A DNA stretch of 64,000 bases from Dehalococcoidia bacterium (GTDB lineage Bacteria; Chloroflexota; Dehalococcoidia; Lucifugimonadales; UBA3495), in assembly GCA_034420475.1 (NCBI GenBank), contig DAOULH010000025.1, positions 1,593 through 65,592 on the forward strand, read 5' to 3'. A program made the translations under genes and the position numbers. Positions 2,480-26,855 of this stretch are shown piece by piece. The notes beneath the pieces are model-generated. The model made no database searches, was not told the origin of the DNA, and was given only the letters and a program-made list of their open reading frames with translations. The stretch's first letter is position 1. Each line of letters starts with the position of its first letter.

Positions 2480-2660
2480 GACGTTCTCCCAATCTGGGGT
2501 GTTGGGGTAGGTGGGTCTATTTTCGTGGGTGTGGGGATTCCCGTAAACCCCTGTACGCAACTGATCTGCAAGATATTTGGCCTATGCCCCCGTTGTGGTG
2601 GTGGCGGTCACTCCGGCTGGGATCGCGTCGTCAATCCCATTGGTGGGCTGTTGTGGCCTG

Positions 2661-3562: not shown

Positions 3563-5314
3563 TCATTCGCTTTCCGGATACGGCCATGTGCGCACGGCGA
3601 TCTCTGCCATCCACACGGAGCGGTCGGTGATGTCCTGGTCTGTCCATTGGTCCTGATGGTGCTCCAGCAATTGCTTGGTGAGCATTACTTCGCTGCTGTC
3701 GCTCAGCGATGCTATTTTCTCTTCCCACGGGGCGTTGTTGTTCCGGTTCGTGGACCTGGTGACCAGCGTGAAGTTGCCGATGTACCGTAGGTGCTGTTGA
3801 CGCCGCTGGTGTCGTGCCTCTGTCCTGTTGCCCGTCATGGGGTAGTTGGTTTCTCCGGCTTCGCCGCTGGGCATCAGCTGTGTAGTTGTCACGCTCCTTT
3901 CCAGTGGTTCCAGCTCGGCGTCCCGCCTCAGTTGGGATTCCAGTGCCTTCAGAATGACATCGCGCCTGGTGGCGTTCATCTCGTGCGGTTGTGCACTCAG
4001 CCTGTCCATGATTTCCCGGTCACGGGGCCAGCGCGCCGCTTCTATGGTCAGCTGTTGCAGCGTTCTCCTGATTGCTTTTGCGGGGCTTTCGCCGGCGTCG
4101 GCGGCTTCCTTCAGCCGCGGCAACAGCATGTTAGTCATGATGTTGGTCATGATGTCGCCGATGCTCAGGTTGGCGATCACCCGACGTATGGCGTAGTTTT
4201 CTATCAGCCGGATGCAGGTCTGCCGCTCAATGCGGCTGACGCTGTTGTCGTCGTCCCAGAGCCACAGGATCACCGGCATAGTGGACGGTAGCCTCATGGC
4301 CATCAGCCGTTCGGAAGCTGGCATTGTGGCTGGGAAGTCGTTGTGCTGGACAGCTCGGTACATCTCGGCGGCGCGGTTCATGCGGTCTGTGATGTGTCGG
4401 ACGTCGCGTCCATTGGATTTGACTTCCTGGGTGTGCGCTCGGAACTCCGGGGCTACCCGTTGGGACCTGATCCGCCGGCGCTTCTGCGCCGTGAGCCAAT
4501 CGGCTAGGAAGTCGTTCAGCTTCCCGTCTTGCCACCAAGGTTCTTCCAGTGCTGGGCTCCACAGCGCGTCGGCTACTTGGTCATCTTCGGTGACGCCGCC
4601 TTCGTACATGATGGTGTTTTTCACCAGCTCAAAGGGATGCAGCGGCTCGCCTCGCCCGTTCAGTGTCTCGAATACGAGATTTGGCTGTTCATTGGCGTCC
4701 AGTTTCAGCAACGCTGTCTGCATTTTCTTGTCGAGCGTCGTGAGCAGGTTGACGCACTGTTCGGCGATGTCGTTGCCGTTGCGGATGTACCTTACAGCAG
4801 CGGTGTTGAAGTGGTCGTAGCACTGGTACATTCTGTTGTCGGCTATGTCCGTGCTGTTGATGCCTTGCAGCACCTCTCGCAAGTTCAAGCTGTCTTGTTT
4901 GCGAGTGTGGCGCACCTTTGGCGTTTTCTGCCCGTAGCCGATATTGTTCCAGATCCTTCCGAGGAATTCTTCGGCAAGTTCCGGTTGGCCGCATTCGCAG
5001 GCTGCGTCGCCGATGGCTTTCAGGATGATGAGCAGCGTGGTGATTCGCTGTTGCCCGTCTACTACGATGTAGCCCGGCGGTCTCCCGTCAGGATGGTGTG
5101 ATCTTTCCTGGATGACGATAGGCCCCATGAAGTGGGGTGGCACATCGTTTGGATCATCGGCGTTGCCGATGGCGTCGGCGACGTTGACGATGTCGTCCCA
5201 TAGTGGGGACCACTGGTTTTCTTCGTTCCAAGCGTAGCGACGCTGGAAGTACGGTATGACGTACTCCTCGTCGGTTTTCATCATTTCGGCCATTGTGGTG
5301 ACGTCTGCTTGCAT
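3563..5314 (-). CDS. GmrSD-like type IV restriction protein (DUF262 N-terminal, DUF1524-like C-terminal)
   Basis: DUF262 signatures IPYFQRRYAW and VVDGQQRITTL. C-terminal IGNFTLVTRSTNRNNNAPWEEK resembles the DUF1524 Asn-rich strand. The expected EH..P motif reads TQLMP. Confidence 0.8.
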   Translation of the reverse strand: MQADVTTMAEMMKTDEEYVIPYFQRRYAWNEENQWSPLWDDIVNVADAIGNADDPNDVPPHFMGPIVIQERSHHPDGRPPGYIVVDGQQRITTLLIILKAIGDAACECGQPELAEEFLGRIWNNIGYGQKTPKVRHTRKQDSLNLREVLQGINSTDIADNRMYQCYDHFNTAAVRYIRNGNDIAEQCVNLLTTLDKKMQTALLKLDANEQPNLVFETLNGRGEPLHPFELVKNTIMYEGGVTEDDQVADALWSPALEEPWWQDGKLNDFLADWLTAQKRRRIRSQRVAPEFRAHTQEVKSNGRDVRHITDRMNRAAEMYRAVQHNDFPATMPASERLMAMRLPSTMPVILWLWDDDNSVSRIERQTCIRLIENYAIRRVIANLSIGDIMTNIMTNMLLPRLKEAADAGESPAKAIRRTLQQLTIEAARWPRDREIMDRLSAQPHEMNATRRDVILKALESQLRRDAELEPLERSVTTTQLMPSGEAGETNYPMTGNRTEARHQRRQQHLRYIGNFTLVTRSTNRNNNAPWEEKIASLSDSSEVMLTKQLLEHHQDQWTDQDITDRSVWMAEIAVRTWPYPESE

Positions 5315-10573: not shown

Positions 10574-10584
10574 GTGTGACGTCG

Positions 10585-10623
10585 TCCCTGGCGAAAGTAA
10601 GTTGAACCCACTTTCGCCAGGGA
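10585..10623. promoter_or_regulatory. perfect 14-bp inverted repeat with 11-nt loop in the Type ISP leader
   Basis: TCCCTGGCGAAAGT-aagttgaaccc-ACTTTCGCCAGGGA, ending 12 nt upstream of the ATG at 10573 on the minus strand. Confidence 0.5.
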
Positions 10624-11189
10624 CTGCGTTGCCCCGTTTTGCGCGGCCGTTACCGTGGTCTTCGGCTTTTGTGGAGGGCGGTTTGCGCGGCGGTAAACGG
10701 CGCGTGTGGGCCACGGTGGTGCTGGAACGTCGGGCAGAGCCGCTGGTCGGGGATGAACACCGTGGGCAGGTGGCGAGGGTAGAAGTCGGTTGGAGTTGCC
10801 ATCGCGTGACGCGGACAGTGGCGGTGTGTGCCTTGGAAGCGGCGGGAATTGTCGCACTGGAACCACCCTGGTGATGTGAGGATAGCGAGGTCTCCCTGTT
10901 CGCCGGTTTCGGCGGTGAGGGTGGGGCTTGTTCCTCTCACCGGGGGATGTTCAGTGTGTCCCGGTCACACGGTCGGGAGCAGGCTACCCGCCGTCTTGGT
11001 CAACGTGACCGGAGGCGTCGAAGTGCCCGAGGGTGTTTTGCTGACGGTGGAGCCGCGACTGGCCGTGCGCTTCTGGTTTATTCTCAGTGGCGCGTGGTGC
11101 AGACGGTGAAATCGGACGGTTTGAAACCCAGTGGCGCAACTCGTCAAGGCGAGGACGCTCTGTGTCGTTCCGACGGGGATTTGAGGCCA

Positions 11190-11831
11190 ATGCTGGAGCG
11201 CAACGTCAGGCACAAGATGGACGGTCTGGACCTGCTGGGAACCCTGGCGGATGATTCCGTGCCGGCGGCGTTCTTCGACCCCCAATACCGGGGCGTCCTC
11301 GATAAGTTGGCGTACGGTAATGAGGGGAAGGCGCGGGGTCAGGCCAGGGCATCGTTGGTTCAGATGACGGAACCGGTCATTCTCCGGTTCTTGGGCGAGA
11401 TAGCGAGGGTGTTGCGCCCGAGCGGCCACGTTTTCCTGTGGACGGACAAATACCACCTCTGCTCGGGTGCCATCGGCTGGTTTGAGGAGTTCCCGCTGGA
11501 GGTGGTCGATCTGATCACCTGGGACAAGATGAGGATGGGGATGGGTTACCGGACGCGTCGTTATGGGGAGTACCTGCTGGTGGTGCAGAAGCCGCCCCTG
11601 GTGGTGTATGGGGGTTGGAAGGGTAGTGACGTTCCCGATTTTTGGTCGGAGAAGCTGTCCGGCCGTAGGGGACATACTCACCGGAAGCCGGTTGGGCTGC
11701 AGTCTGCGCTGATAGAAGCGGTGACGGAGCCGGGGGATGTGGTGGTGGATCCGGCGGCGGGGAGTTTCTCCGTGATGGAGAGCGCGCTTGCGGTGGGGAG
11801 GAATTTCCTGGGCGGGGACCTGAACGGGTAA
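11190..11831 (+). CDS. beta-class (N6A/N4C) DNA methyltransferase, no cognate nuclease gene adjacent
   Basis: Motif IV variant FFDPQYRG precedes motif I VVDPAAGSFS, which is the beta-class order; also HRKPVGLQ. The ORF is open from 10947 but the first 81 codons look non-coding. ATG at 11190 or 11217. Confidence 0.8.
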   Translation: MLERNVRHKMDGLDLLGTLADDSVPAAFFDPQYRGVLDKLAYGNEGKARGQARASLVQMTEPVILRFLGEIARVLRPSGHVFLWTDKYHLCSGAIGWFEEFPLEVVDLITWDKMRMGMGYRTRRYGEYLLVVQKPPLVVYGGWKGSDVPDFWSEKLSGRRGHTHRKPVGLQSALIEAVTEPGDVVVDPAAGSFSVMESALAVGRNFLGGDLNG

Positions 11832-13631: not shown

Positions 13632-14111
13632 TTAGGGAGTTGTGGGCCGCTTCATGAAAACTGCCGCTGTCCCGTATTGGTCGCCCTCGATGCACTCCAA
13701 ATTGTCGTGTTCAATGTCAACACCGTCAAATCCCATCTTGCTGGTCCATTTTTGAGAAGGGAGTTGCCGGCACGCATGAGTCGGGTAATCGTCCTTCACG
13801 AAGATGGCCACTTTCAGGTAGCCATCTTCGGATTCCGGGTTGTCGCACGGCACGTACCCGGTGCTTGTAAAATACTCGACGATGGCTTCGACTGATTCGT
13901 CGTTGCGGATGCCGTCGGGCCAGGTAACCTCTGGTTCCGTCATTACACCCTCTGCACCACTGGGCCAAAGGTGCTGATTTTCGATCCCGGCAGCCCACGC
14001 CACGCAGTTGTACGCGCGTGACGCAGGGCTGGTGACCCTGTGATTGTCGGGCCCTAAACGCGGAAAGTATTGCAACGGGTGTCTGGAGGATTCCGGTCTA
14101 GGCGTAGCCAT
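13632..14111 (-). CDS. papain-fold (CHAP/NlpC-P60-like) candidate protein, 159 aa, coupled to the DISARM-like operon
   Basis: The ATG at 14111 overlaps the last 14 nt of the 1821-aa gene. Candidate Cys (AYNCVAWAAG) and His (PTHACRQ) motifs are in the usual Cys-then-His order. Confidence 0.55.
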   Translation of the reverse strand: MATPRPESSRHPLQYFPRLGPDNHRVTSPASRAYNCVAWAAGIENQHLWPSGAEGVMTEPEVTWPDGIRNDESVEAIVEYFTSTGYVPCDNPESEDGYLKVAIFVKDDYPTHACRQLPSQKWTSKMGFDGVDIEHDNLECIEGDQYGTAAVFMKRPTTP

Positions 14112-17100
14112 TGTCCCGCCCCCATTGCAGCCATGCTTCGTCGTTGAGCGGCGGACTGCCTTTGGCGGATTCGGGAACGGGATTAGCTCCGGTAAGGGTG
14201 CGTAGCGCTGGGTACCACCATCCGCCGTTGTCTTTCATATCCTGCAGGATGAAAGGAATGACGGGTTTCCCCATGGCGATGATTTGCTGATATGCGTGGT
14301 GTCCGGCGATGGCTCGGGGCGACGACAGGCCGGCTGTTTCTGCTCGCCATTCGGTTACGAGTTTTGAGAATTGTCCGCGCAGCGACGCCGTATGTCCGTT
14401 GGTCTCGGCAATTGGGATGAACACGTGCGGGTACTCCCTGAGTTGTTCGATGATTGGTCGGTCATACCTGATGGCGATGACCCCAAAGCCAAAATCCTGC
14501 AACTCTTCACGGGTGTGACTGTCGGCTCTTTGCCGGTCAGGGTCGTCGTGGTGCGGGCCGTCGATGAAAATGCATATGCCCGGACGATTTTCCCGCTCGT
14601 AGTAGAAGTCGGGTTGGACCAGGACTTTCGATGAAGGGCGGTTCTGCGCGCTGTCGGGCAGACGCATTCCGTTGTCCCGCAGCGCTTGGAGGAATTCCCT
14701 TTCCAGCGTCGAGTTTGGGTCAGTGAGATTCATCAGCCGTTGGTATTGTTCGTCGTAGTCTGGCTCTTGTTCCAGCTTGGTTGTTGATGTCGCCAACAAC
14801 CGCAGGTAGTCCAGAATTTTGCGGCGGTCGATCAGCCGGTGTTCCAGTTGGTTGGAGTAGGTGAGCAAGCACTCATAGCAGGCTGAGACGCAGGCGGTTA
14901 TCTGAGCGTCATCGCCGTTGCCTGATGGGTCCTCGTGGCAAAGTCTGATGGCCATGCGGGCTACTGCGGAGAAGGCGTTGGGTTGAGTGACCAGGTGTTC
15001 CCAGACTCCGATGCCGCCTTCGGCGGCTTCCCAAAATATCATGCGGCGATGCTCGTTCTCGCCTATGAGCTCGGCGGAGATTTCCTGATCTTCAACTTGG
15101 TAAACGAACTGTATCGCGCGCTTGATGGCGTGGAGCAGGGTAACCTCGAATTCCGCCGAGGAATTCTCACTGTGGTGTTTCAGGAAAAGAACGTTTCTGG
15201 AGTCCTGTACGTAGGGCCTTACGCCCGATATCGTTGCTGGAACGCCAAGGTCGGAAATCGTTTCGTCCTCGCCGTTTCGAGCCTGCCAACGGCCGGTCGT
15301 TGGGTCAACTCTGAACCCGGGTTCCTCTTCGTTGCTCTGACGGAAGCCGTTGTTGATGCGCCAAAGGCGGGTTCCAGGAGCGTACTGGGCGGTGAGGATA
15401 ATTTCTTCGTCCGCGGACAGCACTTCAGCTGACAGACTTCGGCCTAGACCGAAGTTGAAGTGGGTGGTGACACGGTATCCGTTCCGAACTCGCTCCTCTT
15501 CCTCGGAAGAGATCCGTTCGCGCCTTCTGGCACGCATGGTGGGCTGTTCCAGTAGCTTCTGGATGTAGTCCGAGGATCCATCCAGCCTGGTCCCGCAATT
15601 CAGGCAGAGTTCCAGGTCGGCGTCAGCCCCGTCGTGGGCGTAACCGCAGTTTTGGCAGAGGCGTGCACGCCTGAAGGCTGCTTCGAAGCCTGATGGCGGC
15701 ACGATGGCGGCGTCGATCCGGTACTTCCGCCCCTCGTGATAAACCTGATTGCCGGGAGCGAATTCAGTGAGCCCGAGGAAACGTGGGCGGTCGATCATTT
15801 GGGTGGATTCTCTCATCGGCACGGATACGCGCACGGGTAGCCTGGGGAAGTTGTACCCGGGCAGGAATCCTTCGCTGGCGAGGTAGCGGTACGGGTAAAA
15901 ATCGGATTCTTCCTGTCGGTTGGTCCGGTTTAGCAGCAGGTCGATTTCTCGACGAGCTCCCCGTTCTCGGTGTTCAGCCTGCTGTTTGGCCGATCGGGTA
16001 GCATTGGGATCATCCATCTCTCTTCTGGCGTCGTCGCGTTCGTCGCAGGCTGCTTGATACAGCTCGCGCCACCGTAGGAAAGCCGCGTCGAACTCATCGG
16101 GCGCGGCGCGGAGCGTGTCATTGACCCAGTTGTGGGAGAACCAGGGAGCGTACTGGACTTCCGGTGTACGGTCGATGATGTTCTGTGCTCGTTGGACTGC
16201 CTGCTGGAAATAACGTTCTCTGCGGATTCCTTCGAACTCGGCGGCGAGGTCCTCCTTGATGGGGAAGCTGGGGTCATTCAGGTCGAGGATTTCCTGCATT
16301 CCGCGGCCCAAAGCGATGCCCGTGGTGGCGAGCCAGGTTGAATAGAGGTGGGCCTTCAGGAGTTCCTGATTACGCAGATCCATCCGAGCCGGTTTAACCG
16401 CGCCGGAGATCATTTCATGGCGCCGTCCGAAGTAATACTGATCGTGGGCATTACCCTGGGCCGCGAACGCAACGATAAGTGCTGGCCTGCCCCCGCGACC
16501 TGCGCGACCGCTGCGTTGGGCATAGTTGGCCGGCGTTGGCGGTATGTTTCGCAGGTGTACTGCGTCCAAGTCACTGATGTCCACGCCCAGTTCCATGGTG
16601 GGTGAGCAAAAGAGGGCGGGAAGTGTTCCTTCTCTGAACTCCCTCTCGCGGTCTTCGCGGTCCTTAGCGCTGACCTGGCCAGAGTGAGGTTGGGCTAGGA
16701 TGCCGCGCAATTGGAGCGATCCTCGGTCGTAGAGGTTGGTGAAGTAACTGTTTGGTTGTTGCGTTGCACGGGTCTGACGTCGGAGGTGCAGAGATCGACT
16801 CCGCACCGGGTCGGGACTTGCGGGCGTGGCGTTGCCGGCGACCCATTGCATTCCGGCTGCCAGTAGTCGCACTCCGCGCGCTGCGCCGTTGTTATCGTTT
16901 ACTACGGACAGGAACTGCCCACGGAGTTGTTCGACGATACCGTTGACCAAGGCCTCGCCTTCTGCAACCGATAGGTTTTGGTCAATGCCCCAGGTGTGTT
17001 GGGACCGCAAGTATCGAAGGATCGCGGAACGAGCTCCCAGGCTCATAACGGCCCGCCCATTGCCTTCGTAACGGGTGCGCTGCTTGCCTGGCAGAAGAGC

Positions 17101-19563
17101 GAGACCCGGCCTAGCCAGGATGTCGTTCTCCTCTAGTCGCCAAGGGTCTTTCAGCCACTGATCCGCTCGGTGCGTCAGACTACGTTGAGCGTCTGTGGTC
17201 AACGGATTGGCGTCGATGACGAGGTTCATCCGCAGGTGGTCCAGAAAAGCTTTCAGGACATTCTCGCGCCGGTTAGCATCAGCGTCGGCGATTACCGGTA
17301 AGGGCTGCCATCGGTGATGCTCCAAGGCTAGTTGATCCAGTCCGGGGTACGCGATGCGCAAAAGGCCAGTCTGTTCAAGATTGGGTTGCGTTATCCGCCA
17401 CCCGCGGCTCAGGTCTTCGAGCAGCAGGTACTCCAATAGATCGACCATGGCCCGCTTGCTCTGGTCATATCCAGGCCCGCTGTCGACGGGTTGTAGCAGA
17501 AAGTCGTTGGGTCGGAGTTCCAGGGCGTCAAATACTTTCGGACCCACTTGGTCGAAGGTAAGTTGACCGTTGCGGCGTAGTGCCGAGACTACGCCGGCTC
17601 GCAACATGGCCACTTGGACAAAGTCGTTGAGGTGTCCCGCTTGCAAGGATGCGTCCTGTCGGTTGTCGGTGAAGCTCAGGGCCTTGGCTTCACCGGTTGG
17701 CAGGCCTTGACCTGCCATGCCGGATACGGCGGCGTTTACGGAAATGGTCGTTGCTGTGGAACGGCCGGTCTGGCTCAGTGAGGAGAGTTTGCGGTATTCG
17801 CCTTGCCGGCGGTCATAGACCGCGCGGCAGCGGAGGCATATCAGGAAGGGTTGGGGCTGATACCAACCGAAGACGGCGCCATTTGCGCCTGGTGATTCCT
17901 CTTCCTTGAGCGTTGACCCACTCGTGGTGGGATCCGTCAGCGCACCGTTGGCGGTGGCGGCGTATTTATGTGGAATGAATTGTGCGTAATCGGATTTGAC
18001 AGCCCGGCCTGATCGACGTTCGTTGAACCACTCCTCGGGGAGTTCGTCGGGGTCGCCTGCCCAGATGCCATCGGTGTCCAGGGCGAAGAATCCTCCCTCG
18101 CCTTGGATGCTCTCATCTGCGGCGCCGACGGTTGGAGAGCGCGGCAGGAGCAGTTGCTGCCCCTCAACTTGAGTGAGGATGACCAAGTAATATTCTTGAC
18201 CGCATTCGCGGCAGAAGGCGAGGGGGAATAGCAAGCGCTCGTCGTCGAGCCGGTACTGGCCGTCCATGGTGAACTGCCGGGTTTCAGCGTGTTCGAGGGT
18301 GGCGGAAACGCTGCCACCCGAGGAAAGCCATTGGTGCAGTCTGAAGGCTAGGACGGGTTCTTGTCCTTCAGAAAACGATTGGCTTCCGACGTCCAGTATC
18401 CCTTGCAACTGCTTTCCACATTGTTCGAGTGGAAGGCGGGTTTGTTCGCTGAGGCGGCGTGTGGCATCAGCGAATGTCTCCGGCCGGCGGCGCACTAGGC
18501 GGTCGCCGTGGCTGGTAATGCCGAAGGCTTCTTCCACCCATGCGGTGAGAGGATGGGTTTTCACGGCTTGGGGGGTTGGGACCGGTAGTGGCAGCTCTAC
18601 CGCCGCTCGTAGTTCCGCTTCACCTTGCGGTGTCGGAACTTCGGCGACGTGGCGCAGGGTTTCGTCCACGACGTTGGTTGAAGGTATTTCTTGGCCAAAG
18701 AAGTTGGAGGCGAATCGTGCGACCGTTGCTTTCTGCTCTTCGCGCGTGATGTTTTGGTTCCCGTTGGAAGCTATGGTTGCGCTGGTCGCGATGGTTTGCA
18801 GTTCTCTGCCTGCCGCTTCCTGGAGCCGTCGCGTGAGCATGGCGACGTCGGCGCCTTGCCGGCCCCGGTAGAAATGAAGTTCGTCCATTACCAGGGTTTG
18901 CAAATTGCGGGTTGCAGTTTGAAGCATCGGGCGTTCGCTGGGTCGAAGCAGGAGGTATTCGGCCATCATGTAGTTGGTCAGCAGGATGTGTGGTGGTTCC
19001 TGCTGGATGCGATTTCGTTCGTCCTCACTGGTTTGCCCGGTGTAACTGGCGAAACGCACTGGCGAGTCGGGCCAGTTGCGAGCTTTGAAGCGTTCCAGTG
19101 CCTCAAGCTGGCTGTTGATGAGGGCGTTCATCGGGTAGATCAGTAGAGCCCTCACGGAGTGATGCGACGGTTCGTTGCGGATGATGGCGTCGAAGATGGG
19201 CAGGAGGTAGGTCAGGCTTTTGCCGGATCCGGTGCTGGTGGTGACGACATAGGACTCCCCCTTCAAGCCGAGATCCAAAGCTTCGCGCTGATGCTGGTAG
19301 AGCTGGAGTTCAGGCCCAAAGAACTTGGCGGTTTGCCCGGTCAACAGGCCTTGCTCGGCCAATTGGCGCAGGTTCAGTTCCATTTCGAAGGCCGGGTTTA
19401 GCTGGAGCACTGCGTCTGGCCACAGTGCGCCTTTGCCGAGCATCTCCGCCACGTAATCGTCGATTCGCGGGTCCAGCACTTGGACGAAACTCTGCAAGTA
19501 GTCTTGGTATTCGGAGACTACGGAGTCTTTCAGTTGGAATACGTCCAGCGGCATGATGCTCAC
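14098..19563 (-). CDS. DrmA+DrmB-like fusion (DExH helicase + DUF1998, DruE-like architecture) with C-terminal Vsr/DUF559-like nuclease module
   Basis: Helicase: TSTGSGKSLTY, VMDELHFY, QRSGRAGRGG. DUF1998-type Cys ribbon: CQNCGY...CLNCG and ACYECLLTYSNQ. Nuclease-like: VQPDFYYE...ICIFIDGPHHD...GVIAIRYD. Start is 1 nt after the methylase stop. Confidence 0.85.
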   Translation of the reverse strand: MSIMPLDVFQLKDSVVSEYQDYLQSFVQVLDPRIDDYVAEMLGKGALWPDAVLQLNPAFEMELNLRQLAEQGLLTGQTAKFFGPELQLYQHQREALDLGLKGESYVVTTSTGSGKSLTYLLPIFDAIIRNEPSHHSVRALLIYPMNALINSQLEALERFKARNWPDSPVRFASYTGQTSEDERNRIQQEPPHILLTNYMMAEYLLLRPSERPMLQTATRNLQTLVMDELHFYRGRQGADVAMLTRRLQEAAGRELQTIATSATIASNGNQNITREEQKATVARFASNFFGQEIPSTNVVDETLRHVAEVPTPQGEAELRAAVELPLPVPTPQAVKTHPLTAWVEEAFGITSHGDRLVRRRPETFADATRRLSEQTRLPLEQCGKQLQGILDVGSQSFSEGQEPVLAFRLHQWLSSGGSVSATLEHAETRQFTMDGQYRLDDERLLFPLAFCRECGQEYYLVILTQVEGQQLLLPRSPTVGAADESIQGEGGFFALDTDGIWAGDPDELPEEWFNERRSGRAVKSDYAQFIPHKYAATANGALTDPTTSGSTLKEEESPGANGAVFGWYQPQPFLICLRCRAVYDRRQGEYRKLSSLSQTGRSTATTISVNAAVSGMAGQGLPTGEAKALSFTDNRQDASLQAGHLNDFVQVAMLRAGVVSALRRNGQLTFDQVGPKVFDALELRPNDFLLQPVDSGPGYDQSKRAMVDLLEYLLLEDLSRGWRITQPNLEQTGLLRIAYPGLDQLALEHHRWQPLPVIADADANRRENVLKAFLDHLRMNLVIDANPLTTDAQRSLTHRADQWLKDPWRLEENDILARPGLALLPGKQRTRYEGNGRAVMSLGARSAILRYLRSQHTWGIDQNLSVAEGEALVNGIVEQLRGQFLSVVNDNNGAARGVRLLAAGMQWVAGNATPASPDPVRSRSLHLRRQTRATQQPNSYFTNLYDRGSLQLRGILAQPHSGQVSAKDREDREREFREGTLPALFCSPTMELGVDISDLDAVHLRNIPPTPANYAQRSGRAGRGGRPALIVAFAAQGNAHDQYYFGRRHEMISGAVKPARMDLRNQELLKAHLYSTWLATTGIALGRGMQEILDLNDPSFPIKEDLAAEFEGIRRERYFQQAVQRAQNIIDRTPEVQYAPWFSHNWVNDTLRAAPDEFDAAFLRWRELYQAACDERDDARREMDDPNATRSAKQQAEHRERGARREIDLLLNRTNRQEESDFYPYRYLASEGFLPGYNFPRLPVRVSVPMRESTQMIDRPRFLGLTEFAPGNQVYHEGRKYRIDAAIVPPSGFEAAFRRARLCQNCGYAHDGADADLELCLNCGTRLDGSSDYIQKLLEQPTMRARRRERISSEEEERVRNGYRVTTHFNFGLGRSLSAEVLSADEEIILTAQYAPGTRLWRINNGFRQSNEEEPGFRVDPTTGRWQARNGEDETISDLGVPATISGVRPYVQDSRNVLFLKHHSENSSAEFEVTLLHAIKRAIQFVYQVEDQEISAELIGENEHRRMIFWEAAEGGIGVWEHLVTQPNAFSAVARMAIRLCHEDPSGNGDDAQITACVSACYECLLTYSNQLEHRLIDRRKILDYLRLLATSTTKLEQEPDYDEQYQRLMNLTDPNSTLEREFLQALRDNGMRLPDSAQNRPSSKVLVQPDFYYERENRPGICIFIDGPHHDDPDRQRADSHTREELQDFGFGVIAIRYDRPIIEQLREYPHVFIPIAETNGHTASLRGQFSKLVTEWRAETAGLSSPRAIAGHHAYQQIIAMGKPVIPFILQDMKDNGGWWYPALRTLTGANPVPESAKGSPPLNDEAWLQWGRDNGYA

Positions 19564-19564
19564 C

Positions 19565-22500
19565 TTAGTGGTTCAGGTTGGGTGGGTGGCCTTGGGCCAG
19601 CAGATCGTAGGCTTGCAGGACATAGCGCTGGGTGCGGTATTCACCGAACTGTCGCTCTTCGTTGCGTTTCAGTCCGGGAAAAGACTGTGACGGCTCTGGG
19701 GCGTCAAGGATCCACTCTAAATCTTCGCGTTCCAGCTGGTAAAGATGGGCGTAAATGGCGTCCAGTTCGCACTTGAGCCGGTGTCGGCGGTCTTCGTCCC
19801 AGGCGAAGGGCGGGCCGTCGTAGCCCAGGTCTTGGGCGAATGACTGCAAGTCCCATGCAGTGTAGGTTAGTTCCAATGCTCTGGGCACAACGAGTTCGAT
19901 CCAGGTATGGCCTGGCGGTGCGGTTTCGATGTAGACATCGGGCGGTAGCACGGGCAGTTGCTTGACGATGAAGAAGCTCATGTGGGTGCCGCCCACGGAA
20001 AGGCGGGCAGCCCAGTCAAATGGCAGGCTGTTCATGTTGGCAAGCACGAGTACCGAGGCAACAGCGCGCTCGTTCTGGTAGTCGAGGACTGGAGCATTGT
20101 TTCCAACGCCATGGCCGGGTACGTTGGCAGGGACCATGGTGCTGGCGTTGGTGCTGTTCGTGATGTCCCGAAAGACTTGATGCCAACCTGCGTAATTCAT
20201 GCGCGCAATGGGAGCTCCTCCGTCAACGGCGGTTGTTCGTAACAGGGTCGAGATCGAAGTTCGTTGGTCGGTGGCACGGGCGACGTTTCTGAAACCTATG
20301 AACCAATCGTAACTATGGTTGCGGTGTGGCCTACCCCGAACGAGGGAATGACCGACAACATCATGGTGCGTTCGTTGGTTGCGTTGGTGATGTCCCGGAG
20401 AACGAGTTGCGAGCCAGCTCGGCAAGTTTGTAGAACGTCTGATCGGGGGGGGGGGGGTAGAAGTTAAATCGGATTCCGATGCACCAAGCCGCTGAGAGAC
20501 TTCCTCTGCGGGAACCCAGTATCTGGGGATCACGACTGCACTAGGGTCAGCTTTTTCGTGGCTTGCCATTTCCCTGGCGTTGCCGGCGGAACGCGCGCGT
20601 TCATCTACGTCTTCGAATGTGGCGAAGCGGTGGTCGTACTGGTGGAACAGCTTGGCCTCGTAAAGCGGAAGGTAGCGTTCGTCGCCCTTGACGAATTCGT
20701 TGCCGTCCAAGTGCCAACCGTTTAGTTCCAGCTGTTCCCGGGTTTGGAACAGGCCCGAGTCGTTGGACATATGGAACATAGCGGAGAATCTAACACCCCA
20801 CGGGTTGCGCTCTGGCTCGCCGGCTTGGGCTTCTTTCCAGAATACCCCGGCTCGTCGGTATAGTTTGGCGGCGATGTCCGCATCCCGCCGGGTGCGAAAG
20901 ACGGGGCAGGTGCGCGTGTTGGGGTTGAACAATGCAAAGTCTGCTGGCTGAAGGATGAAGCGGCGGCCATCGTCTTGGAGTTGCTCAGTGCGGTATAGGA
21001 AGAAGGCAAATTCTGCCTGATGCGATGGGCGATCTGTTCCAGTCATGGTCAACAGGCAGAACTTAATTCGGCTGTCTATACCTGGGAAAACACGCTCGCG
21101 GTTTTCGAAGTCGTACAGGCTCACCAGTGATTGGTGGTTCACGAGGTCGGCGAAAAACACCTTCGTCGTATCGTCGGTGGCTATCCCAGAAGGGACGATC
21201 ATGCCTGCTTTGCCGGAGGGATTGCAGATGCCTCGCGCGGTTTCGGCGAAGATGGAGTAGGTGTTGACATCACCTCGTCCGGTCATCGGAAAACGCTCGC
21301 TGCCACGGACGAAGCGGCTGATTGATTCTGCCTGGTGTAGGGCGTCAGAAAATTCCTGCGCTAAGTGTGGGTTCTCTTGAGGTAACGCCTGGATGAGTCT
21401 GTCCCTGGCAGCTTTGTTGGGGGCGTCGGCAATTTCTTGGTCCCTGGTTTCGAAGAATTCCTTCTCCTGCAGCTTGATCCGCTCCCACGGTGGATTTCCC
21501 AACACGACGTCGAATCCGCCGGTGTGGAACACATCGGGAAATTCGAGGGGCCAGTGAAAGAATGTGTTGGCTTGTGAAGCAGCGATCGCTGCGGCTTCGA
21601 GTTGGGGTTGCGTGGCCCGATTCGCCAGGGCCTGACGGATGTTATCCGTGGTGGGAACACGGGCCGGGCTACCCGATGCCTGCGGTTGTAGCGGGGCAAA
21701 GAAAGCGTAGGTCCAAAGGTCGCAGGCAACCTTTTGTTGCCACCAATGGGTATCTGGGCCCCGCAGCTCTTCGTAGAGGTTCTCTTTGGCCTGCACTTCG
21801 GCAGGGCTGTGTTCTTCCAATTCAGTGAAAGCCGTCCATTCGGCTGCGATGGCATCGACGTCTGGTTGATCAGCGAACATCGCGGCCTGCCCTGGTCGCT
21901 CCCGTCTGTTGCGCCTACGGAAGTATGTGGCTTCGGTTCTATCGTCACCGGTGACGGCCTTGTAGGCGTCGTCGGGAATGCCGGTGTGTAGGACGTCCAA
22001 GTCCTTGACGCCCACCAGGCTGTCGCCGCATTTGATGTGGTGGTCGAGGAACCCAAGTGGGAAGCCTGCGGCGTGACTTTCGATCCACAGAGCGACTTTG
22101 CACAGGTCCACCGCCAGGGGGTTCTTGTCGACGGCGTAGATGCAGTTGCGCACGACGTCGCGGAGGGCGGTGCGGTACTCGGTAGGTGGTGGTTCTTCCT
22201 CGCTGGAGCGTGCGCGCGCGAGCTCTCGGGCGATGCGCCGGGCGGCGGCCAGTAGGAAGTGGCCGGACCCGGCGGCGGGGTCGCATACTTTGAGTGAAAG
22301 GAGGGCCTGTTCCTTGGCTTCCGCAGTTCGGCTGTCATGCAGTCTTTCGTTGATGACTGGAACGAGGGCACTGTCCACAAGTTCGCGGACCAGTTCTGGC
22401 GGCGTGTAATAGGATCCTGTCTGTTTGCGCTCGGTGCCGGGCGCCAACTGGAAGTTGGGTCTTCGACCAGTTACTTCGTTTTCGGCGAGTACCAGCGGGC

Positions 22501-23779
22501 GGTAGTCCAATAGGCTTTCGTAAACGGAGCCGAATTCCTCGACGTCTAGGTGGGCGTAGTTGACGCGGCGTACGACATCACCATCGCGGAAGGTGGACAG
22601 GTTGCGCAACGCATTGAGGAAGTCTTCGTTGGGGCAAACGGCGTTTTCGAGGTCCCGACAGGTGGACTCCTTGAACAATTCACCATTCATGGGGAACAGG
22701 TTCAGGGCGTCGGCCGCGGCGGGATTGCGGAATAAACGGAACGTTTGGGCGAGGCCTTGCCAGAGGTCGGTGTGGGTGTCGCCGGCATACCGGCGTTCTG
22801 CGCGCTCTCGCAAGCTGGCGACGCTGTAATAGCGGTGGTAGATGTTGTGGCGCTCGGTGTCGTCGCCGGTGGTGAAGAGTATCTTCCTCTCCTCGCTCAC
22901 CATCAGGAAAAGCAGGCGGTACACGAAGCTGAGCAGTTGGCGATAGTAGGCGTTCTCCGTCAATCTCCCGTTGCGGAAGGATTCACGGAGCGCGGCGTTT
23001 TCTGGGTGGCGCAGAAGAGCGGCGCCCAGGATTTCGAGGGCGTTTTTGACGCCATCCCGGAGTTTCTCACGGACCCTGCCGCCCTCTTCGACTCCTTGAT
23101 TGTAGTAGCTTTCCAGGAGGCAGTCGTGGGGTTCTGCACCTGGTTGTGGAAAACGTGTGGAGTGGACCAGCCGGTAAAGCGCGGTGAACTCTGCGTAGGC
23201 GTTACCTTCCAGCATCGCCTGGAGGTCGAATTCAAGGTAGGTCGGCTTCGATAGTCGAGCGCTGTCCCGTAGCAGGCGCAGCTTGGCACCGTTGGTGACG
23301 ACGCCCCAAAGGGTCTCGGAGCGGTTCAGGTATTCCTGTACCAGCGCGTGGGGGGAACGGCGGGTGGTGCGGCCGCGTTGATCCAAGGTCTGGTCCGGAG
23401 AGACGACGTGGACCGGCGGCGCGTGTTCGTCGCTGTAAGCGAAATGGGAAATCGGGAAGGTCGTCCCGCCGAGGTCTATGCCGGTTCGTTGAAGCTCCAG
23501 AGGCGGAAATCCGAGGATCTCAAAGAAGGGAATCGCCCAGTCTTGGCGAGTGAGCGTGGTGAGGTTTTGCCGGGACCGGTCTCTGCGCCGGTTGAAAGCG
23601 TCCCAGCGCAGAGCGGCGTCGCTGAAGCCGCTCTGGATTTCGTCCAGGAGAGTGCGGTTGGGGCGCAGCCCGAAGTCTCTGGCTGTCTGGCCTGCGACGT
23701 TGCTGTTGGGTTGGGAAATTCGTTCCAGCAGGTCAGGATTGAACAGTCCGCCTTCAAGGCTGATGGTTGAGTAATTCAA
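19565..23779 (-). CDS. DrmMI-like N6-adenine DNA methyltransferase, 1404 aa
   Basis: PglX/DrmMI-like N-terminus (LWGVVTNGAKLRLLRD). GSYYTPPELV, VCDPAAGSGHFLLAAA, VLGNPPWERIK. Contains a C13 tract (G13 on plus, 20445-20457). Confidence 0.85.
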   Translation of the reverse strand: MNYSTISLEGGLFNPDLLERISQPNSNVAGQTARDFGLRPNRTLLDEIQSGFSDAALRWDAFNRRRDRSRQNLTTLTRQDWAIPFFEILGFPPLELQRTGIDLGGTTFPISHFAYSDEHAPPVHVVSPDQTLDQRGRTTRRSPHALVQEYLNRSETLWGVVTNGAKLRLLRDSARLSKPTYLEFDLQAMLEGNAYAEFTALYRLVHSTRFPQPGAEPHDCLLESYYNQGVEEGGRVREKLRDGVKNALEILGAALLRHPENAALRESFRNGRLTENAYYRQLLSFVYRLLFLMVSEERKILFTTGDDTERHNIYHRYYSVASLRERAERRYAGDTHTDLWQGLAQTFRLFRNPAAADALNLFPMNGELFKESTCRDLENAVCPNEDFLNALRNLSTFRDGDVVRRVNYAHLDVEEFGSVYESLLDYRPLVLAENEVTGRRPNFQLAPGTERKQTGSYYTPPELVRELVDSALVPVINERLHDSRTAEAKEQALLSLKVCDPAAGSGHFLLAAARRIARELARARSSEEEPPPTEYRTALRDVVRNCIYAVDKNPLAVDLCKVALWIESHAAGFPLGFLDHHIKCGDSLVGVKDLDVLHTGIPDDAYKAVTGDDRTEATYFRRRNRRERPGQAAMFADQPDVDAIAAEWTAFTELEEHSPAEVQAKENLYEELRGPDTHWWQQKVACDLWTYAFFAPLQPQASGSPARVPTTDNIRQALANRATQPQLEAAAIAASQANTFFHWPLEFPDVFHTGGFDVVLGNPPWERIKLQEKEFFETRDQEIADAPNKAARDRLIQALPQENPHLAQEFSDALHQAESISRFVRGSERFPMTGRGDVNTYSIFAETARGICNPSGKAGMIVPSGIATDDTTKVFFADLVNHQSLVSLYDFENRERVFPGIDSRIKFCLLTMTGTDRPSHQAEFAFFLYRTEQLQDDGRRFILQPADFALFNPNTRTCPVFRTRRDADIAAKLYRRAGVFWKEAQAGEPERNPWGVRFSAMFHMSNDSGLFQTREQLELNGWHLDGNEFVKGDERYLPLYEAKLFHQYDHRFATFEDVDERARSAGNAREMASHEKADPSAVVIPRYWVPAEEVSQRLGASESDLTSTPPPPIRRSTNLPSWLATRSPGHHQRNQRTHHDVVGHSLVRGRPHRNHSYDWFIGFRNVARATDQRTSISTLLRTTAVDGGAPIARMNYAGWHQVFRDITNSTNASTMVPANVPGHGVGNNAPVLDYQNERAVASVLVLANMNSLPFDWAARLSVGGTHMSFFIVKQLPVLPPDVYIETAPPGHTWIELVVPRALELTYTAWDLQSFAQDLGYDGPPFAWDEDRRHRLKCELDAIYAHLYQLEREDLEWILDAPEPSQSFPGLKRNEERQFGEYRTQRYVLQAYDLLAQGHPPNLNH
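20445..20457. repeat. 13-nt G homopolymer (C13 on the coding strand) inside the methylase gene
   Basis: Direct count in gatcGGGGGGGGGGGGGtag. Encodes TPPPP in the drawn frame. Confidence 0.95.
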
Positions 23780-23780
23780 T

Positions 23781-26648
23781 TTACACCCCCGATGGCGTCA
23801 ATACGTAGCAGCCGATGATGTCTGGAGGACGGTGGGGTGTCACGGTGGCGTGTCGTCCGGGGACGGCTTGACGGAGCCGGGTGTGAGCTGCTTCCAAAGT
23901 TGCTGCCCGGTGGGTGACGATTTCGGTGTCCCATCCATCACTTAAGCGGTCTAGCGCCCAACTTACGTGTTCGGCACGCTCCTCCGGCGATAGGTTGGCC
24001 ACCGGTTGTGCATCGGCGACGAGGCGTAGTATGCGATTTTGGCTGTCGTCGGTGTGGTCACCAGTCCAGTTTAGGCCGTCTGCCCGGCTGGAGAAAGCGG
24101 CGACGACGACTTCCTCGGCGAATTGTTGGCTTTCGGCACTCTGATCTGAGGTCTGTATCAGAAAACGGAGCCGTAGGAGAAATACTGCGGTCCTGCGTTC
24201 GACCGCTGGGGTAACGATGGCGCCTGCCCTGGCGAAAAGGGGTTCTTGTGCCTGCAGTGCCTTGGCCAGGACGGCGTCGGCGGCGGTGCTGACCACTGGG
24301 TGGTTGCGCCCGATGAGGGCTACGCCGTTCTGTGGTACGCCTTCGAAAGCTACGGTCATTGGGAAATTGAGGCGGTTATCGCGATCTGCGATGTGGTCTT
24401 TAAGGTCGCCTGGGGTTAGCCTGAATACGCCCGCTCGGTTGGTGGGGTTGAGTTCGCCGTTGAATCTTTGCAGAGCATTGGTGAGGAATCTTTTTACGTC
24501 GGCGGCACTGCCGAGGACTGGTTCCATTTCCTGGAGTTCGTTGGATATCGCGTCTGGGTGGATGCCATGTTGGGCGAAGTATGTGCGGGTTCGGTCTTCC
24601 CGATCGGCGACCTCATCCCACGCTTGGTGCAATCGGCTGACTTCAGCGGTTTGTAGCGGAAGGGTTGCTTGTCTGCCTTGGGTTCGTCCGCGGAGTAGAA
24701 CGCTGTCGACCAGGGTGTTGACCACCTGTTCAGGCTGCACTGGAACCGGGACCGTGATGCCCAAACGTTGGCGGATGGTTTGTGCCTTTCGCAGGAGAAC
24801 GTCGAGCACCACGAGGTCCACTTCATTGTCCGCACCGTAAAGGAGGACGGTTTTGATTGTTGGTTTGGGTTGACCATAGCGGTCAACTCGGCCCTCTCGC
24901 TGCTCCAAGCGGTTGGGGTTCCAGGGCAAGTCGTAGTGGACGACCGCGTCGTAATGGTCCTGGAGGTTGACGCCTTCGCTGAGGCAATCGGTTGCCACCA
25001 GCACTCGTGCGGGGTGTTGGGCCAGGTCGAGGACAATCTCCTTGCGCTGTTCGCTGTCGCCGTCGTTGCCGGTGACCGCGCTGACGCGGAGACCTGGATG
25101 GCGCGATGTCAGCTCGTTCCTGATCTGTTCTGCGACGTAATAGGCGGTTTGGATGAATCGGCAGTAAACGATGGGGCGGTATCCGTCATCGAGGAGTTCG
25201 GATACCGCGGAAATAGCCTCGCGGACTTTCGCATCATGCTCTGGTCCGGCGAGCGTGTTGGCGCGCCGTAAGAAAGCGCTGAGGCGCCGATCTTCGCTGG
25301 AGGACGTTGTGTCGTCGTCTTCCAGCGTGATTGCGGGTACGTAGTCGGCGGCCTGGTCTTCCTCGGCAGAGTCAACTATCTGGGTGCCGAGGAGATCGTC
25401 GGGGATCTGCCCTCCATTTGCGGGATCGTCCTCGTGCGTCCCGTTGTGGGCCGGGCGCCTGTTTTCAAGGGCCGCTCGTGCTGCCGAGGGGCTGGATAGC
25501 ACGCATCGCAAGATGGACAGCGCTGCCCAGTAGCGGACTCGCTGGCGTTGTTCAGCCATGCCGCTGGTGTCAACGTACTCTCGGCAATAGGCCAGGATGT
25601 CTTGATAAAGGCGGTGGTAATCAGCCGACATACGGTAGCTGCGTTCCACGGCCACGCGGTCTGGGAAGGGCGTCTCTACGTCGAGCCATCGTTTCAGGTC
25701 GGCGCGTTTGCGCTGGATGATGTGGGGCGTCAACTCCGCGCGGGGCAGGTCGTCGTCGTTAGCGGAATCGAACTCGGGGTTCAGCAAGCCGAGTAGTGAC
25801 TGGAAACTCTGCTCTATCCCACTGTGTGGGGTTGCGGTGGCCAGGATGACGTGGCGGCGCGGATCGATGGCGAGGTCTTTGGCAAGGGCATAACGCTGTT
25901 GCTGAGCAGCGCCGCGGTCGCTTCTGGGGCGCGCGGCGGTGTGGGCTTCGTCCACGATGACCAAATCGGGTGCGTTGGCTAGAAAAAGGTGCCTGTTGCG
26001 GTCGGATTTCGCGAAGTCGATGCTGACTACCATGTGGCGGTAATGCTGGTATAGCGAGACATCGTTTCGCGGCAAAGCGCGCTCCAGCTTGCTGATGGTG
26101 GAGGACTGGATGACCGCGGCGTCGATATTGAATTTGGTTCGGAGCTCTTCGTCCCATTGCTCGCACAGATGTGGAGGGCATAGAACGCATAAGCGGCGGG
26201 CGGTGCCCCGGTCCAATAATTCTCGGGCGATCATGCCGGCCTCGATGGTTTTTCCCACGCCCACGTCATCGGCGATCAAGAGGCGGACCGGGTCCAGGCG
26301 CAGAGCCATGATCAGAGGGACGAACTGGTATGGCCGTGGCGTTACGGATATACGACCCATCGACCGGAAAGGGCCGGCTCCGCTGCGTAGGTTGAGACGT
26401 ACGGCGTCCCTGAGCAAACTGGCTCCAGAAGAGTCTCCGGCTTTATCCGGGTCGGGTGGCAGGTACTGCGTCGGCTTGAGGGCGTCTGGCTCTAATGGCA
26501 GGTAGATGCCGATGGTATCGGTCTCGGTGCCGTCAATGGGTCGGAGACGAACGATTTCGGGTTCGTCTTGAGGCAATACGACCCAGTCCCGGTTGCGGGC
26601 TCGAGCCAGTTGTCCTGGCGCCCATTCGTATGCAGCTGTCGCTGTCAC
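23781..26648 (-). CDS. DrmD-like SNF2-family helicase
   Basis: RPYQ, ADDVGVGKTIEAG, VIVDEAHTAA, HYDLPWNPNRLEQREGRVDRYGQ. The frame is open to 26813, but that start lies upstream of a TGCTACAAT promoter-like box. GTG at 26648 has AAGGTGA 4 nt upstream. Confidence 0.85.
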   Translation of the reverse strand: MTATAAYEWAPGQLARARNRDWVVLPQDEPEIVRLRPIDGTETDTIGIYLPLEPDALKPTQYLPPDPDKAGDSSGASLLRDAVRLNLRSGAGPFRSMGRISVTPRPYQFVPLIMALRLDPVRLLIADDVGVGKTIEAGMIARELLDRGTARRLCVLCPPHLCEQWDEELRTKFNIDAAVIQSSTISKLERALPRNDVSLYQHYRHMVVSIDFAKSDRNRHLFLANAPDLVIVDEAHTAARPRSDRGAAQQQRYALAKDLAIDPRRHVILATATPHSGIEQSFQSLLGLLNPEFDSANDDDLPRAELTPHIIQRKRADLKRWLDVETPFPDRVAVERSYRMSADYHRLYQDILAYCREYVDTSGMAEQRQRVRYWAALSILRCVLSSPSAARAALENRRPAHNGTHEDDPANGGQIPDDLLGTQIVDSAEEDQAADYVPAITLEDDDTTSSSEDRRLSAFLRRANTLAGPEHDAKVREAISAVSELLDDGYRPIVYCRFIQTAYYVAEQIRNELTSRHPGLRVSAVTGNDGDSEQRKEIVLDLAQHPARVLVATDCLSEGVNLQDHYDAVVHYDLPWNPNRLEQREGRVDRYGQPKPTIKTVLLYGADNEVDLVVLDVLLRKAQTIRQRLGITVPVPVQPEQVVNTLVDSVLLRGRTQGRQATLPLQTAEVSRLHQAWDEVADREDRTRTYFAQHGIHPDAISNELQEMEPVLGSAADVKRFLTNALQRFNGELNPTNRAGVFRLTPGDLKDHIADRDNRLNFPMTVAFEGVPQNGVALIGRNHPVVSTAADAVLAKALQAQEPLFARAGAIVTPAVERRTAVFLLRLRFLIQTSDQSAESQQFAEEVVVAAFSSRADGLNWTGDHTDDSQNRILRLVADAQPVANLSPEERAEHVSWALDRLSDGWDTEIVTHRAATLEAAHTRLRQAVPGRHATVTPHRPPDIIGCYVLTPSGV

Positions 26649-26764
26649 TAGATCACCTTCAGGTGGCGGCGCGGGCGGCTCGTTGTCGTCGCGGACCGCC
26701 AGGCAGTTACGATGTGCTGAGCCGTGGGATGCGATGGGGTGAGGGGAGGAGGCCGGAATCCGCT

Positions 26765-26855
26765 CGCGCGTTGCTCGTATGTCGGGCGGATTGTAGCACC
26801 AGCCGCTTGTCACATACAGTGCCGCCGGCGGGTATGGAGGGTGGAAGTTGTGGTG
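26765..26855. repeat. ~90-bp direct repeat, copy 1 (contains TGCTACAAT on the minus strand at 26790-26798)
   Basis: About 80% identical to 28362-28452. The shared core is GCGGATTGTAGCACCAGCCG. Confidence 0.75.
26790..26798 (-). promoter_or_regulatory. extended -10 promoter candidate (TGnTACAAT) for the DISARM-like operon
   Basis: Minus strand reads TGCTACAAT about 140 nt upstream of the GTG at 26648. The same box recurs in repeat copy 2, and TGnTATAAT boxes flank dnaN/alaX. Confidence 0.45.

Follow-up and report, generated by a model that had tools for sequence, protein, structure and literature searches.

Within a 64,000-nucleotide (nt) stretch of a Dehalococcoidia genome (contig DAOULH010000025.1; the window, throughout this text), a DISARM-like defence operon includes a gene for a DrmMI-like N6-adenine DNA methylase of 1404 amino acids (aa), and the coding strand of this gene contains a run of 13 cytosines. 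It is likely that this C13 tract is an evolved contingency repeat, in which slippage changes the number of cytosines and the length modulo 3 picks one of three C-termini for the enzyme. Repeats occupy the same site in relatives, all three downstream frames are found among them, copy number varies, and a segment termed here unit A is under purifying selection in a frame that the assembled gene does not read. These observations support the proposal of an earlier note on this DNA that the tract acts as a slipped-strand phase switch.

The tract, which appears as G13 on the plus strand, is accompanied in the window by a single other homopolymer of at least 8 nt, a C9 at 3041-3049. Translation of the methylase open reading frame (ORF) confirmed that the tract encodes TPPPP, residues 1108-1112, and that it is followed by the His/Arg-rich peptide pointed out earlier, IRRSTNLPSWLATRSPGHHQRNQRTHHDVVGHSLVRGRPHRNHSY (aa 1113-1157, 20309-20443). 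The same DNA shifted by one nucleotide gives RSDVLQTCRAGSQLVLRDITNATNERTMMLSVIPSFGVGHTATIVTIGS and then a TAG at 20296-20298, also as previously described. The repeat unit of this tract is not a multiple of 3 and lies inside an ORF, and the product depended on tract length when lengths from C9 to C17 were simulated. Tracts of 10, 13 or 16 C (n = 1 mod 3, the long or L frame) yielded 1403-1405 aa, with 1404 aa for C13 as assembled; tracts of 9, 12 or 15 C (n = 0 mod 3, the unit-A or S frame) yielded 1159-1161 aa with unit A at the end; and tracts of 11, 14 or 17 C (n = 2 mod 3, the third or X frame) yielded 1138-1140 aa. The simulation reproduces exactly the earlier statement that 12 or 15 C would bring unit A into frame and truncate the enzyme, and that 14 C would give an early stop.

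In the proposed mechanism, slipped-strand mispairing during replication would alter the length of the tract. With n = 1 mod 3, the 1404-aa enzyme would be made, in which the DNA of the helix-like segment and of unit A is read as a disordered spacer, followed by units B and C and the C-terminal domain. With n = 0 mod 3, the enzyme would have about 1160 aa and would end in unit A, a full copy of the near-invariant T-N/D-x-R-T strand element of the family's recognition region, and would lack the C-terminal domain. With n = 2 mod 3, the product would be about 1139 aa long and end in a short conserved helix, without a unit or a C-terminal domain. The positions of these elements are collected in Table 1.

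Table 1. Elements of the putative switch and genes of the operon, in window coordinates.
Feature	Position	Strand	Remarks
C13 repeat	20445..20457	(-)	C13 on the coding strand; length mod 3 picks the downstream frame
X-frame helix-like segment FYKLAELARNSFSG	20394..20435	(-)	Read when n = 2 mod 3
Unit A SQLVLRDITNATNERTMMLSVIPSFGVGHTATIVTIGS	20299..20412	(-)	S frame, read when n = 0 mod 3; TAG at 20296-20298
Long-isoform spacer IRRSTNLPSW...HRNHSY, aa 1113-1157	20309..20443	(-)	Helix segment and unit A as read off frame
Unit B DWFIGFRNVARATDQRT..., aa 1158-1198	20186..20308	(-)	TDQRT motif in the N-terminal half, the copy that is structured in the long isoform
Unit C WHQVFRDITNSTNAST...GVGNNAPVL, aa 1199-1232	20084..20185	(-)	GVGNNAPVL half leads into the C-terminal domain
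C-terminal domain, aa 1233-1404	19568..20083	(-)	Conserved, mostly helical; long isoform only
Methylase gene, 1404 aa, DrmMI-like gamma-class N6-adenine methylase	19565..23779	(-)	Assigned by Pfam, PADLOC and motifs
SNF2-family helicase gene (DrmD/DpdE-like)	23781..26813	(-)	First operon gene; stop abuts the methylase start
1821-aa helicase gene, DEAD + Helicase_C + MZB (DUF1998)	14098..19563	(-)	Start 2 nt past the methylase stop

The unit A DNA in the assembled frame serves as the spacer, and the X-frame tail runs over 20361-20444 to a TGA at 20361-20363. Units A and C share 15 of 37 residues; their 57-nt core is 72% identical at the DNA level and the whole unit 55%. Unit B matches A or C at just 8 of 37-38 residues. 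The earlier note's description of a near copy, also at the DNA level, overstated the degree. Tandem Repeats Finder returned no array on 19500-21000 because the units are too diverged. Three related units are indeed present, as the word triplicated had implied; judged from their sequences, they are old paralogues common to the whole clade and not a fresh triplication. The near-invariant T..RT of canonical homologues aligns to unit B (T470, R473 and T474 of alignment A2). The N-terminal half of unit C is degenerate, with TNAST in place of TNERT, and is modelled as disordered; unit C is also degenerate in the homologues P0005 and P0042. The contrast of TNATNERT with ARATDERT was considered as a specificity mark and set aside as probable structural covariation, both patterns being found in canonical single-unit enzymes.

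The site was scanned in 159 loci, anchored by tblastn with a conserved 100-aa match containing IPRYWVP, and comprising 16 clade members (anchor identity of at least 62%) and 143 canonical loci with a single unit. A repeat is present at the site in 16/16 clade loci, beginning about 5-41 nt past the end of the anchor match, and in none of the 143 canonical loci, the kind of single-unit homologue against which the earlier note had suggested comparing the tract; one canonical locus has an incidental A8, 200 nt away from the site. A metagenome scan returned mostly distant relatives of at most 57% identity, none with a repeat at the site, which serve as controls only and include no clade members.

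The repeats of the clade are of many types. An 8-Mb contig (L002) carries a perfect (GGCCAGG)33.7 at 9322-9557 and a Dehalococcoidia chromosome (L004) carries (AGAC)15, a unit that recurs in 8, 4, 3 and 2 copies in L169, L170, L171 and L164, respectively. Other loci have (CCAG)4 (L163), (ACCG)4.8 (L166) or at least 11 copies of GCACA in a contig that ends within the repeat (L058). Homopolymers are represented by G9 in an Arenicellales metagenome-assembled genome (MAG; L005), C29 with an adjoining short (TC)6 in a Rhodothermales chromosome (L006), and C11 in an Aestuariivita MAG (L009). C15 is found in L001, the DNA of the short homologue P0021, which is in the S state while the remainder of the gene stays intact in the other frame; C14 in L168 leads into the X frame and an early stop; and in L165, C13 with one base fewer upstream gives the unit-A frame. 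The DNA repeat units in the clade are thus 1, 2, 4, 5 and 7 nt long, the 2-nt unit being the (TC)6 of L006, and no unit length is divisible by 3. The protein sequences of 17 or more additional homologues are periodic at 4, 5, 7, 8 and 10 residues, which implies repeat units of as many nucleotides, again never a multiple of 3; TRHDT repeated 12 times, for example, corresponds to an ACACG repeat. The hosts of the clade are distributed over Chloroflexota, Rhodothermales, Arenicellales, Aestuariivita and Binataceae.

Tract length is polymorphic among relatives. L169 and L170 have near-identical flanks with 8 and 4 AGAC copies, and L171, L164 and L004, whose flanks are related, have 3, 2 and 15, so that AGAC ranges from 2 to 15 copies; cytosine tracts of 13, 14 and 15 are also found, subject to a caveat on long-read assemblies discussed below. 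The states of these C tracts are long for C13, X for C14 and S for C15. Decayed repeats occur too, L164 being fixed long and L167 fixed short. Three MAG contigs end inside the repeat, at polyG of at least 51 (L003), at no fewer than 6 copies of AGAC (L013) and in the GCACA array of L058. Such ends are suggestive of length heterogeneity breaking the assembly, and the polyG of L003 could alternatively be an artefact of two-colour sequencing.

The close homologues found by protein search fall into three length groups of about 1400, 1160-1210 and 1140 aa. Long homologues carry the same odd off-frame peptide and then units B and C. Those of intermediate length have unit A in frame and an equivalent stop, as in P0021, which ends ...TPPPPRSDVLFTRRAGPQLALRDVTNATNERTVMLSVIPLSGVGHTATIVTIGL. 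In the shortest, read in the third frame (...PPPPDQTFYKLAELARNSLSG...), similarity to the window protein ends at residue ~1107, the tract position. Clusters at 90% identity mix long, S and X forms (e.g., P0163/P0167, P0160 and P0165). In loci in the S or X state, the downstream long frame and the C-terminal domain are still open and conserved, and the S-specific tail GLSDSGTTI.VGSS is kept between relatives of ~46% identity from different phyla. Within 400 nt after its repeat, L002 has three units, one per reading frame, which would give two short isoforms and one long; both short forms are found as called proteins (P0019 and P0151).

Selection was assessed on the same DNA in all three frames from 12 loci, using Nei-Gojobori counts and a codon bootstrap for the ratio of nonsynonymous to synonymous changes per site (pN/pS), and with a permutation test of site variability on 14 loci. 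Over unit A proper, the 32 codons from DITNATNERT to TIGS, pN/pS is 0.48 (0.38-0.60) in the S frame, 1.09 in X and 1.12 in L. Over the 14-15 codons after the repeat (FYKLAELARNSFSG in the X frame), compared in L001, L004-L006, L009, L163-L169 and L171, it is 0.44 (0.24-0.66) in X, 1.4 in S and 0.8 in L. Unit C, taken as a control, gave 0.40 in its true frame and 1.2-1.5 off frame. Variability over unit A is greatest at S-frame third positions (permutation p<0.0002), and over the helix-like stretch, where many changes are X-synonymous, at X-frame third positions (p=0.027). No purifying selection was detected in the spacer frame (L) over unit A. The low S-frame ratio and the third-position variability indicate that unit A is maintained as protein in its own frame, and that the full-length reading of this DNA is an unconstrained spacer.

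The signature of third-frame selection that the X-frame stretch after the repeat appears to bear was unexpected. The helix read in the X frame, LAELARNSLSG, is similar to one found ahead of the single unit in canonical homologues with a long linker, among them P0105 (PLAEELVERFSPHWFLDWRDIARSTDERT) and P0082. Ancestrally, helix and unit were probably in one frame and are now 1 nt out of register. Since the X-frame segment shows purifying selection, the product of the 14-C early stop may be a third isoform and not a null.

Structural predictions place the switch within the enzyme. The AlphaFold model of aa 701-1404 has a mean predicted local distance difference test score (pLDDT) of 73.5. The tract and spacer (aa 1101-1157) are modelled as disordered, with pLDDT below 50; two strands, at aa 1159-1163 and 1177-1181, are predicted in the N-terminal half of unit B; disorder returns over aa 1183-1228, which cover the remainder of B and the degenerate N-terminal half of C; and the end of unit C with the C-terminal domain reaches block-mean pLDDT values mostly of 84-98, with one block of 64 near the domain start. 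In the model of the short homologue P0021, unit A is predicted as beta strands at the equivalent place (pLDDT ~65-73). A Foldseek search with the long model matched CamA, M.BseCI, M.TaqI and BrxX/PglX with E values of 1e-8 to 1e-5; a sequence search of the PDB with the whole protein gave no match, so that the fold search alone is informative. Because these matches comprise methylase and recognition domains and the units are modelled as strands, the switch is placed, on this model, in the recognition region downstream of the catalytic domain. The fold matches to M.TaqI, CamA and BrxX accordingly favour the earlier suggestion that the tract acts on the target-recognition end. The domain that follows the recognition domain in BrxX makes non-specific DNA contact and has been proposed to mediate interactions within the BREX complex. 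By analogy, we infer that a coupling domain would be lost from the short isoforms, while the catalytic part and most of the recognition part would be retained.

As L002 has a unit in each frame and both of its short forms are called elsewhere, the tract seems to select one of three maintained C-termini, and so to switch between isoforms and not simply on and off. The S- and X-state loci with intact downstream frames give indirect support for reversible switching, and switching is presumed to be reversible and frequent in this organism as well. The three isoforms would be expected to differ in function. The most likely division, we infer, is that one form provides full methylation together with defence coupling, a second binds or methylates DNA but is uncoupled from the partner helicases, and the third is inactive or serves as a scaffold.

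Four other explanations of the tract have to be weighed. The idea that the homopolymer of an otherwise ordinary methylase gene was wrongly assembled or sequenced, and that the frame-offset unit is meaningless, has in its favour that a 13-C run is error-prone on all platforms and that long-read relatives show fragmented genes. C13 as assembled, however, already yields an intact 1404-aa ORF, so that no error need be invoked; the same architecture is found with non-homopolymer repeats, including the perfect (GGCCAGG)33.7 and (AGAC)15, and in clade members from other assemblies and phyla (L009 and L166), and unit A is selected in its own frame. The assembly error that the earlier note had offered as its alternative is scarcely credible on this evidence and is effectively refuted for the architecture, although reads could revise the tract length of this record. 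It is also extremely improbable that the repeat just marks a linker that is flexible and hypervariable, or a junction at which C-terminal cassettes are swapped by recombination, with changes of frame being incidental. Mosaic C-termini would fit this idea, with a different recognition module in P0007 and P0008 and another short-unit type in P0151 within a 90% cluster, as would the disorder of the tract-encoded stretch; but a plain linker would tolerate or favour units of 3n, of which none is seen, and selection on off-frame segments requires that those frames be translated.

Gene decay, in which the units and the repeat would be duplication and indel debris, the short ORFs pseudogene fragments, and the long form alone important, could account for the degenerate unit C of the window (TNAST), P0005 and P0042 and for the decayed repeats of L164 and L167. 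It is nevertheless a very improbable account, given the purifying selection on unit A (S) and the helix (X), an S tail conserved across phyla at ~46% identity, unrelated repeat sequences at one site, and a unit in every frame of L002. Isoforms might instead be made together from one template, by RNA polymerase slippage or programmed ribosomal frameshifting, with no heritable DNA switching. Long homopolymers can cause transcriptional slippage, mostly at A/T runs, and the X-frame helix and S-frame unit A, which resemble one ancestral helix-plus-unit 1 nt off, could be read as a frameshift site. The repeats of most clade members, though, have units of 4-10 nt, which support neither slippage of the polymerase nor frameshifting of the ribosome, and copy number differs between relatives at the DNA level. 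Inspection of the helix/unit junction in 14 loci revealed no conserved slippery heptamer (X_XXY_YYZ), and RNA folding around the site was no better than in shuffled sequences (z=+1.0); for these two reasons a programmed ribosomal frameshift was rejected. Co-production from one template is therefore unlikely; polymerase slippage could add to the effect on homopolymers and cannot be the general mechanism.

It is important to set out the points that weigh against the C13 tract being a contingency repeat. Many close relatives come from low-coverage long-read assemblies, in which differences between C13, C14 and C15 could be errors. The clusters of P0021, P0026 and P0065 contain many members that are fragments of 120-1075 aa on long contigs (ctgN_3x..42x), such as P0122 (770 aa) and P0132 (521 aa). 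Given such fragmented genes and the many frameshifts that these assemblies carry, homopolymer lengths in them are unreliable, and it is the 4-7-nt repeats and the evidence of selection that carry the case. Tests of selection draw on 12-14 phylogenetically non-independent loci and short segments, with synonymous divergence (pS) near saturation, and the p of 0.027 makes for a modest signal in the X frame. The units are modelled by AlphaFold at a confidence of just ~57-73. The C13 length in the window is the provisional value of a single assembly, heterogeneity within the organism is conjectural, and the short proteins are predicted from sequence, their stability and activity being presumed.

The methylase itself matches Eco57I (3e-20) and N6_Mtase in Pfam, and in PADLOC DrmMI ranks first (1.3e-87, covering part of the protein). 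Motif I (DPAAGSGHF, from aa 500) and motif IV (NPPW, at aa 762) stand in gamma order with the recognition domain after them, and the 1404-aa protein is accordingly a gamma-class N6-adenine DNA methylase (Eco57I/Type IIG-IIL-like, M.TaqI fold). Neither Pfam nor NCBIfam detected a nuclease family in it, the fold search not covering the N-terminal ~440 aa, and the endonuclease domain fused to the methylase that marks a Type IIG enzyme was thus not found.

The helicase that opens the operon carries SNF2-rel_dom, Helicase_C and ResIII in Pfam and matches DpdE (4e-187) and DrmD (1.8e-95) in PADLOC; its NCBIfam score for DISARM_DrmD is 366.6 bits against a cut-off of 610. The 1821-aa helicase resembles a DrmA-DrmB fusion or DruE, with PADLOC ranking DruE above DrmA, and so contains the DrmA and DrmB (DUF1998) components of DISARM as a fusion in a single protein. 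No phospholipase D (PLD) domain, as expected for the DrmC nuclease, was found in any flanking ORF scanned. Because of this missing gene and the DrmD score below the NCBI cut-off, the operon is described as DISARM-like and not as Class 1 DISARM. It matches the loci with helicase and DUF1998 as a single coding sequence (CDS) that Milman et al. (PMC9881135) called 'similar to Class 1 DISARM'. Between 19300 and 20700, there is no terminator-like site on the coding strand and no promoter-like site, which leaves ideas of polarity or an internal promoter without sequence support.

The operon is embedded in a defence island with a GmrSD-type restriction gene (3563-5314), a gene for a 1765-aa Type ISP-like protein with Mrr nuclease, helicase and Eco57I-type methylase (5417-10714), and an N6_N4 methylase gene (10947-11831). 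The C9 at 3041-3049 (plus strand), the second-longest homopolymer of the window, lies in the stretch downstream of the GmrSD gene; around it are only the unannotatable ORFs 2608-3108(-) and 3099-3656(+), for which Pfam gave no match. Directly 3' of the big helicase is a small DUF7689 gene (13632-14111, minus strand), likewise present in L002 (16182-16452), which may be a further conserved component of the DISARM-like operon. In L002, an IS21-type transposase pair (Mu-transposase C-terminal domain and IstB) lies beside the operon at 533-2817, and an AbiEii toxin gene adjoins the operon at the 5' ends of L164 and L167. The spread of the clade over several phyla, with mobile and defence neighbours, fits horizontal transfer. 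Close relatives are also mosaic (P0005, P0006 and P0026 compared with P0003; P0007, P0008 and P0029; P0151): unrelated versions replace the segment that follows NPPW and, separately from it, the recognition region at ~aa 960-1290, and the extreme C-terminus is nearly identical. One 90% cluster holds both the window-type and the L002-type short unit.

Unit B also contains a candidate internal start. The codon aligned to the V of the canonical G-V-G-N is ATG in 6/12 and GTG in 4/12 clade loci, compared with ATG in 0/72 and GTG in 21/72 canonical homologues (p=1.6e-4, uncorrected for phylogeny), and an AGGAG-like core often lies 6-8 nt 5' of this ATG/GTG. L164-L168, L005 and L006 have a candidate start at the position equivalent to window 20198-20227, and gene callers begin the downstream ORF of ~220 aa (213-227 aa) at the unit-B codon in short-state loci. 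In the window, the V codon is GTT (20225-20227), and GGAGGA is followed by an ATG at 20198-20200. Such a start may allow a separate C-terminal part to be made, and translational coupling to the helicase, in the short states.

A more far-reaching version of the switch can be put forward tentatively, as a possibility more doubtful than secure. In this version, each of three overlapping frames would encode its own selected module: a helix in X, a recognition-region unit in S, and a unit with the C-terminal domain in L. The methylase would then not be turned off; the DISARM-like system would be re-wired among three functional configurations, with the unit-B ATG/GTG possibly yielding a separate C-terminal protein and coupling to the helicase, and the design would have spread horizontally among unrelated environmental phyla.

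Several known systems resemble the proposed switch in part. The Type IIG enzyme Cj0031/Cj0032 of Campylobacter jejuni NCTC11168 carries a polyG tract (PMC4889913) and shares with the window gene a single large gamma-class methylase, a G/C homopolymer ~70-80% along the gene with domains on both sides, and slippage that splits the frame. Cj0031, however, is described as ON/OFF, with the tract in a subset of alleles and no selected alternative C-termini described, whereas in the present clade the type of repeat varies widely and every frame leads to a maintained tail of its own. The NgoAV Type I system of Neisseria gonorrhoeae, with polyG in hsdS1 (PMC9577141; Adamczyk-Poplawska 2011), has a three-outcome homopolymer switch giving a truncated active product, a fused full-length product of different specificity, or an inactive one. 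By analogy, it appears to be the closest functional counterpart of a long/short/third-state switch in the recognition part, although there the tract is in a separate Type I specificity subunit with two recognition domains, the truncated form dimerises, and no frame-offset duplicated unit is involved.

In PglX of the Streptomyces coelicolor Pgl system (BREX-2), a methylase for defence against phages that falls in the same broad class of folds, phase variation of a G tract alters the defence phenotype (PMC4365076; Sumby and Smith 2003), and BrxX/PglX structures match the window protein; it differs in belonging to another defence system and in its simple 8G/7G ON/OFF frameshift with no alternative isoforms. 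Programmed inversions in DrmMI genes of Class 1 DISARM and DISARM-like systems (Milman et al. 2023, PMC9881135) concern the same kind of system and the same target gene, a methylase beside a single-CDS helicase-DUF1998 whose coding sequence is altered by a programmed switch; there, site-specific inversion swaps coding segments, whereas repeat slippage among overlapping frames would act here. In the phasevarions of Type III mod and Type I hsdM/hsdS genes (PMC5909438, PMC7383803), simple sequence repeats with units of 1-5 nt or more inside methylase ORFs likewise change length and frame, but mostly in host-adapted pathogens and generally as ON/OFF switches, in contrast to an isoform set in environmental lineages (Chloroflexota, Rhodothermales, Arenicellales and others). 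The literature searched yielded no description of repeats in DrmMI-like genes, which is not proof of absence. New here are the system, its hosts, and many unrelated repeat types at one codon-precise site; a paralogous unit, offset in frame, with which the truncated enzyme would still finish in a whole structural element under selection; and, on sequence evidence, signs of selection in all three frames.

These results bear on annotation, since many 'truncated' homologues of 1140-1180 aa and the ORFs of 210-230 aa that follow them would be states of one gene. Phase-variable methylases are mainly known from host-adapted pathogens and are mostly on/off, whereas the present clade is widespread in uncultured environmental bacteria and would be an example from nature of overlapping frames used to choose isoforms stochastically. 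It also offers a handle on a question common to DISARM and BREX-type systems, namely, the role of the non-catalytic methylase C-terminus in coupling methylation to defence, for which locked short and long variants would be ready-made separation-of-function alleles. If the proposed division of roles among the isoforms is true, the population of this bacterium would be divided into immunity and methylation states.

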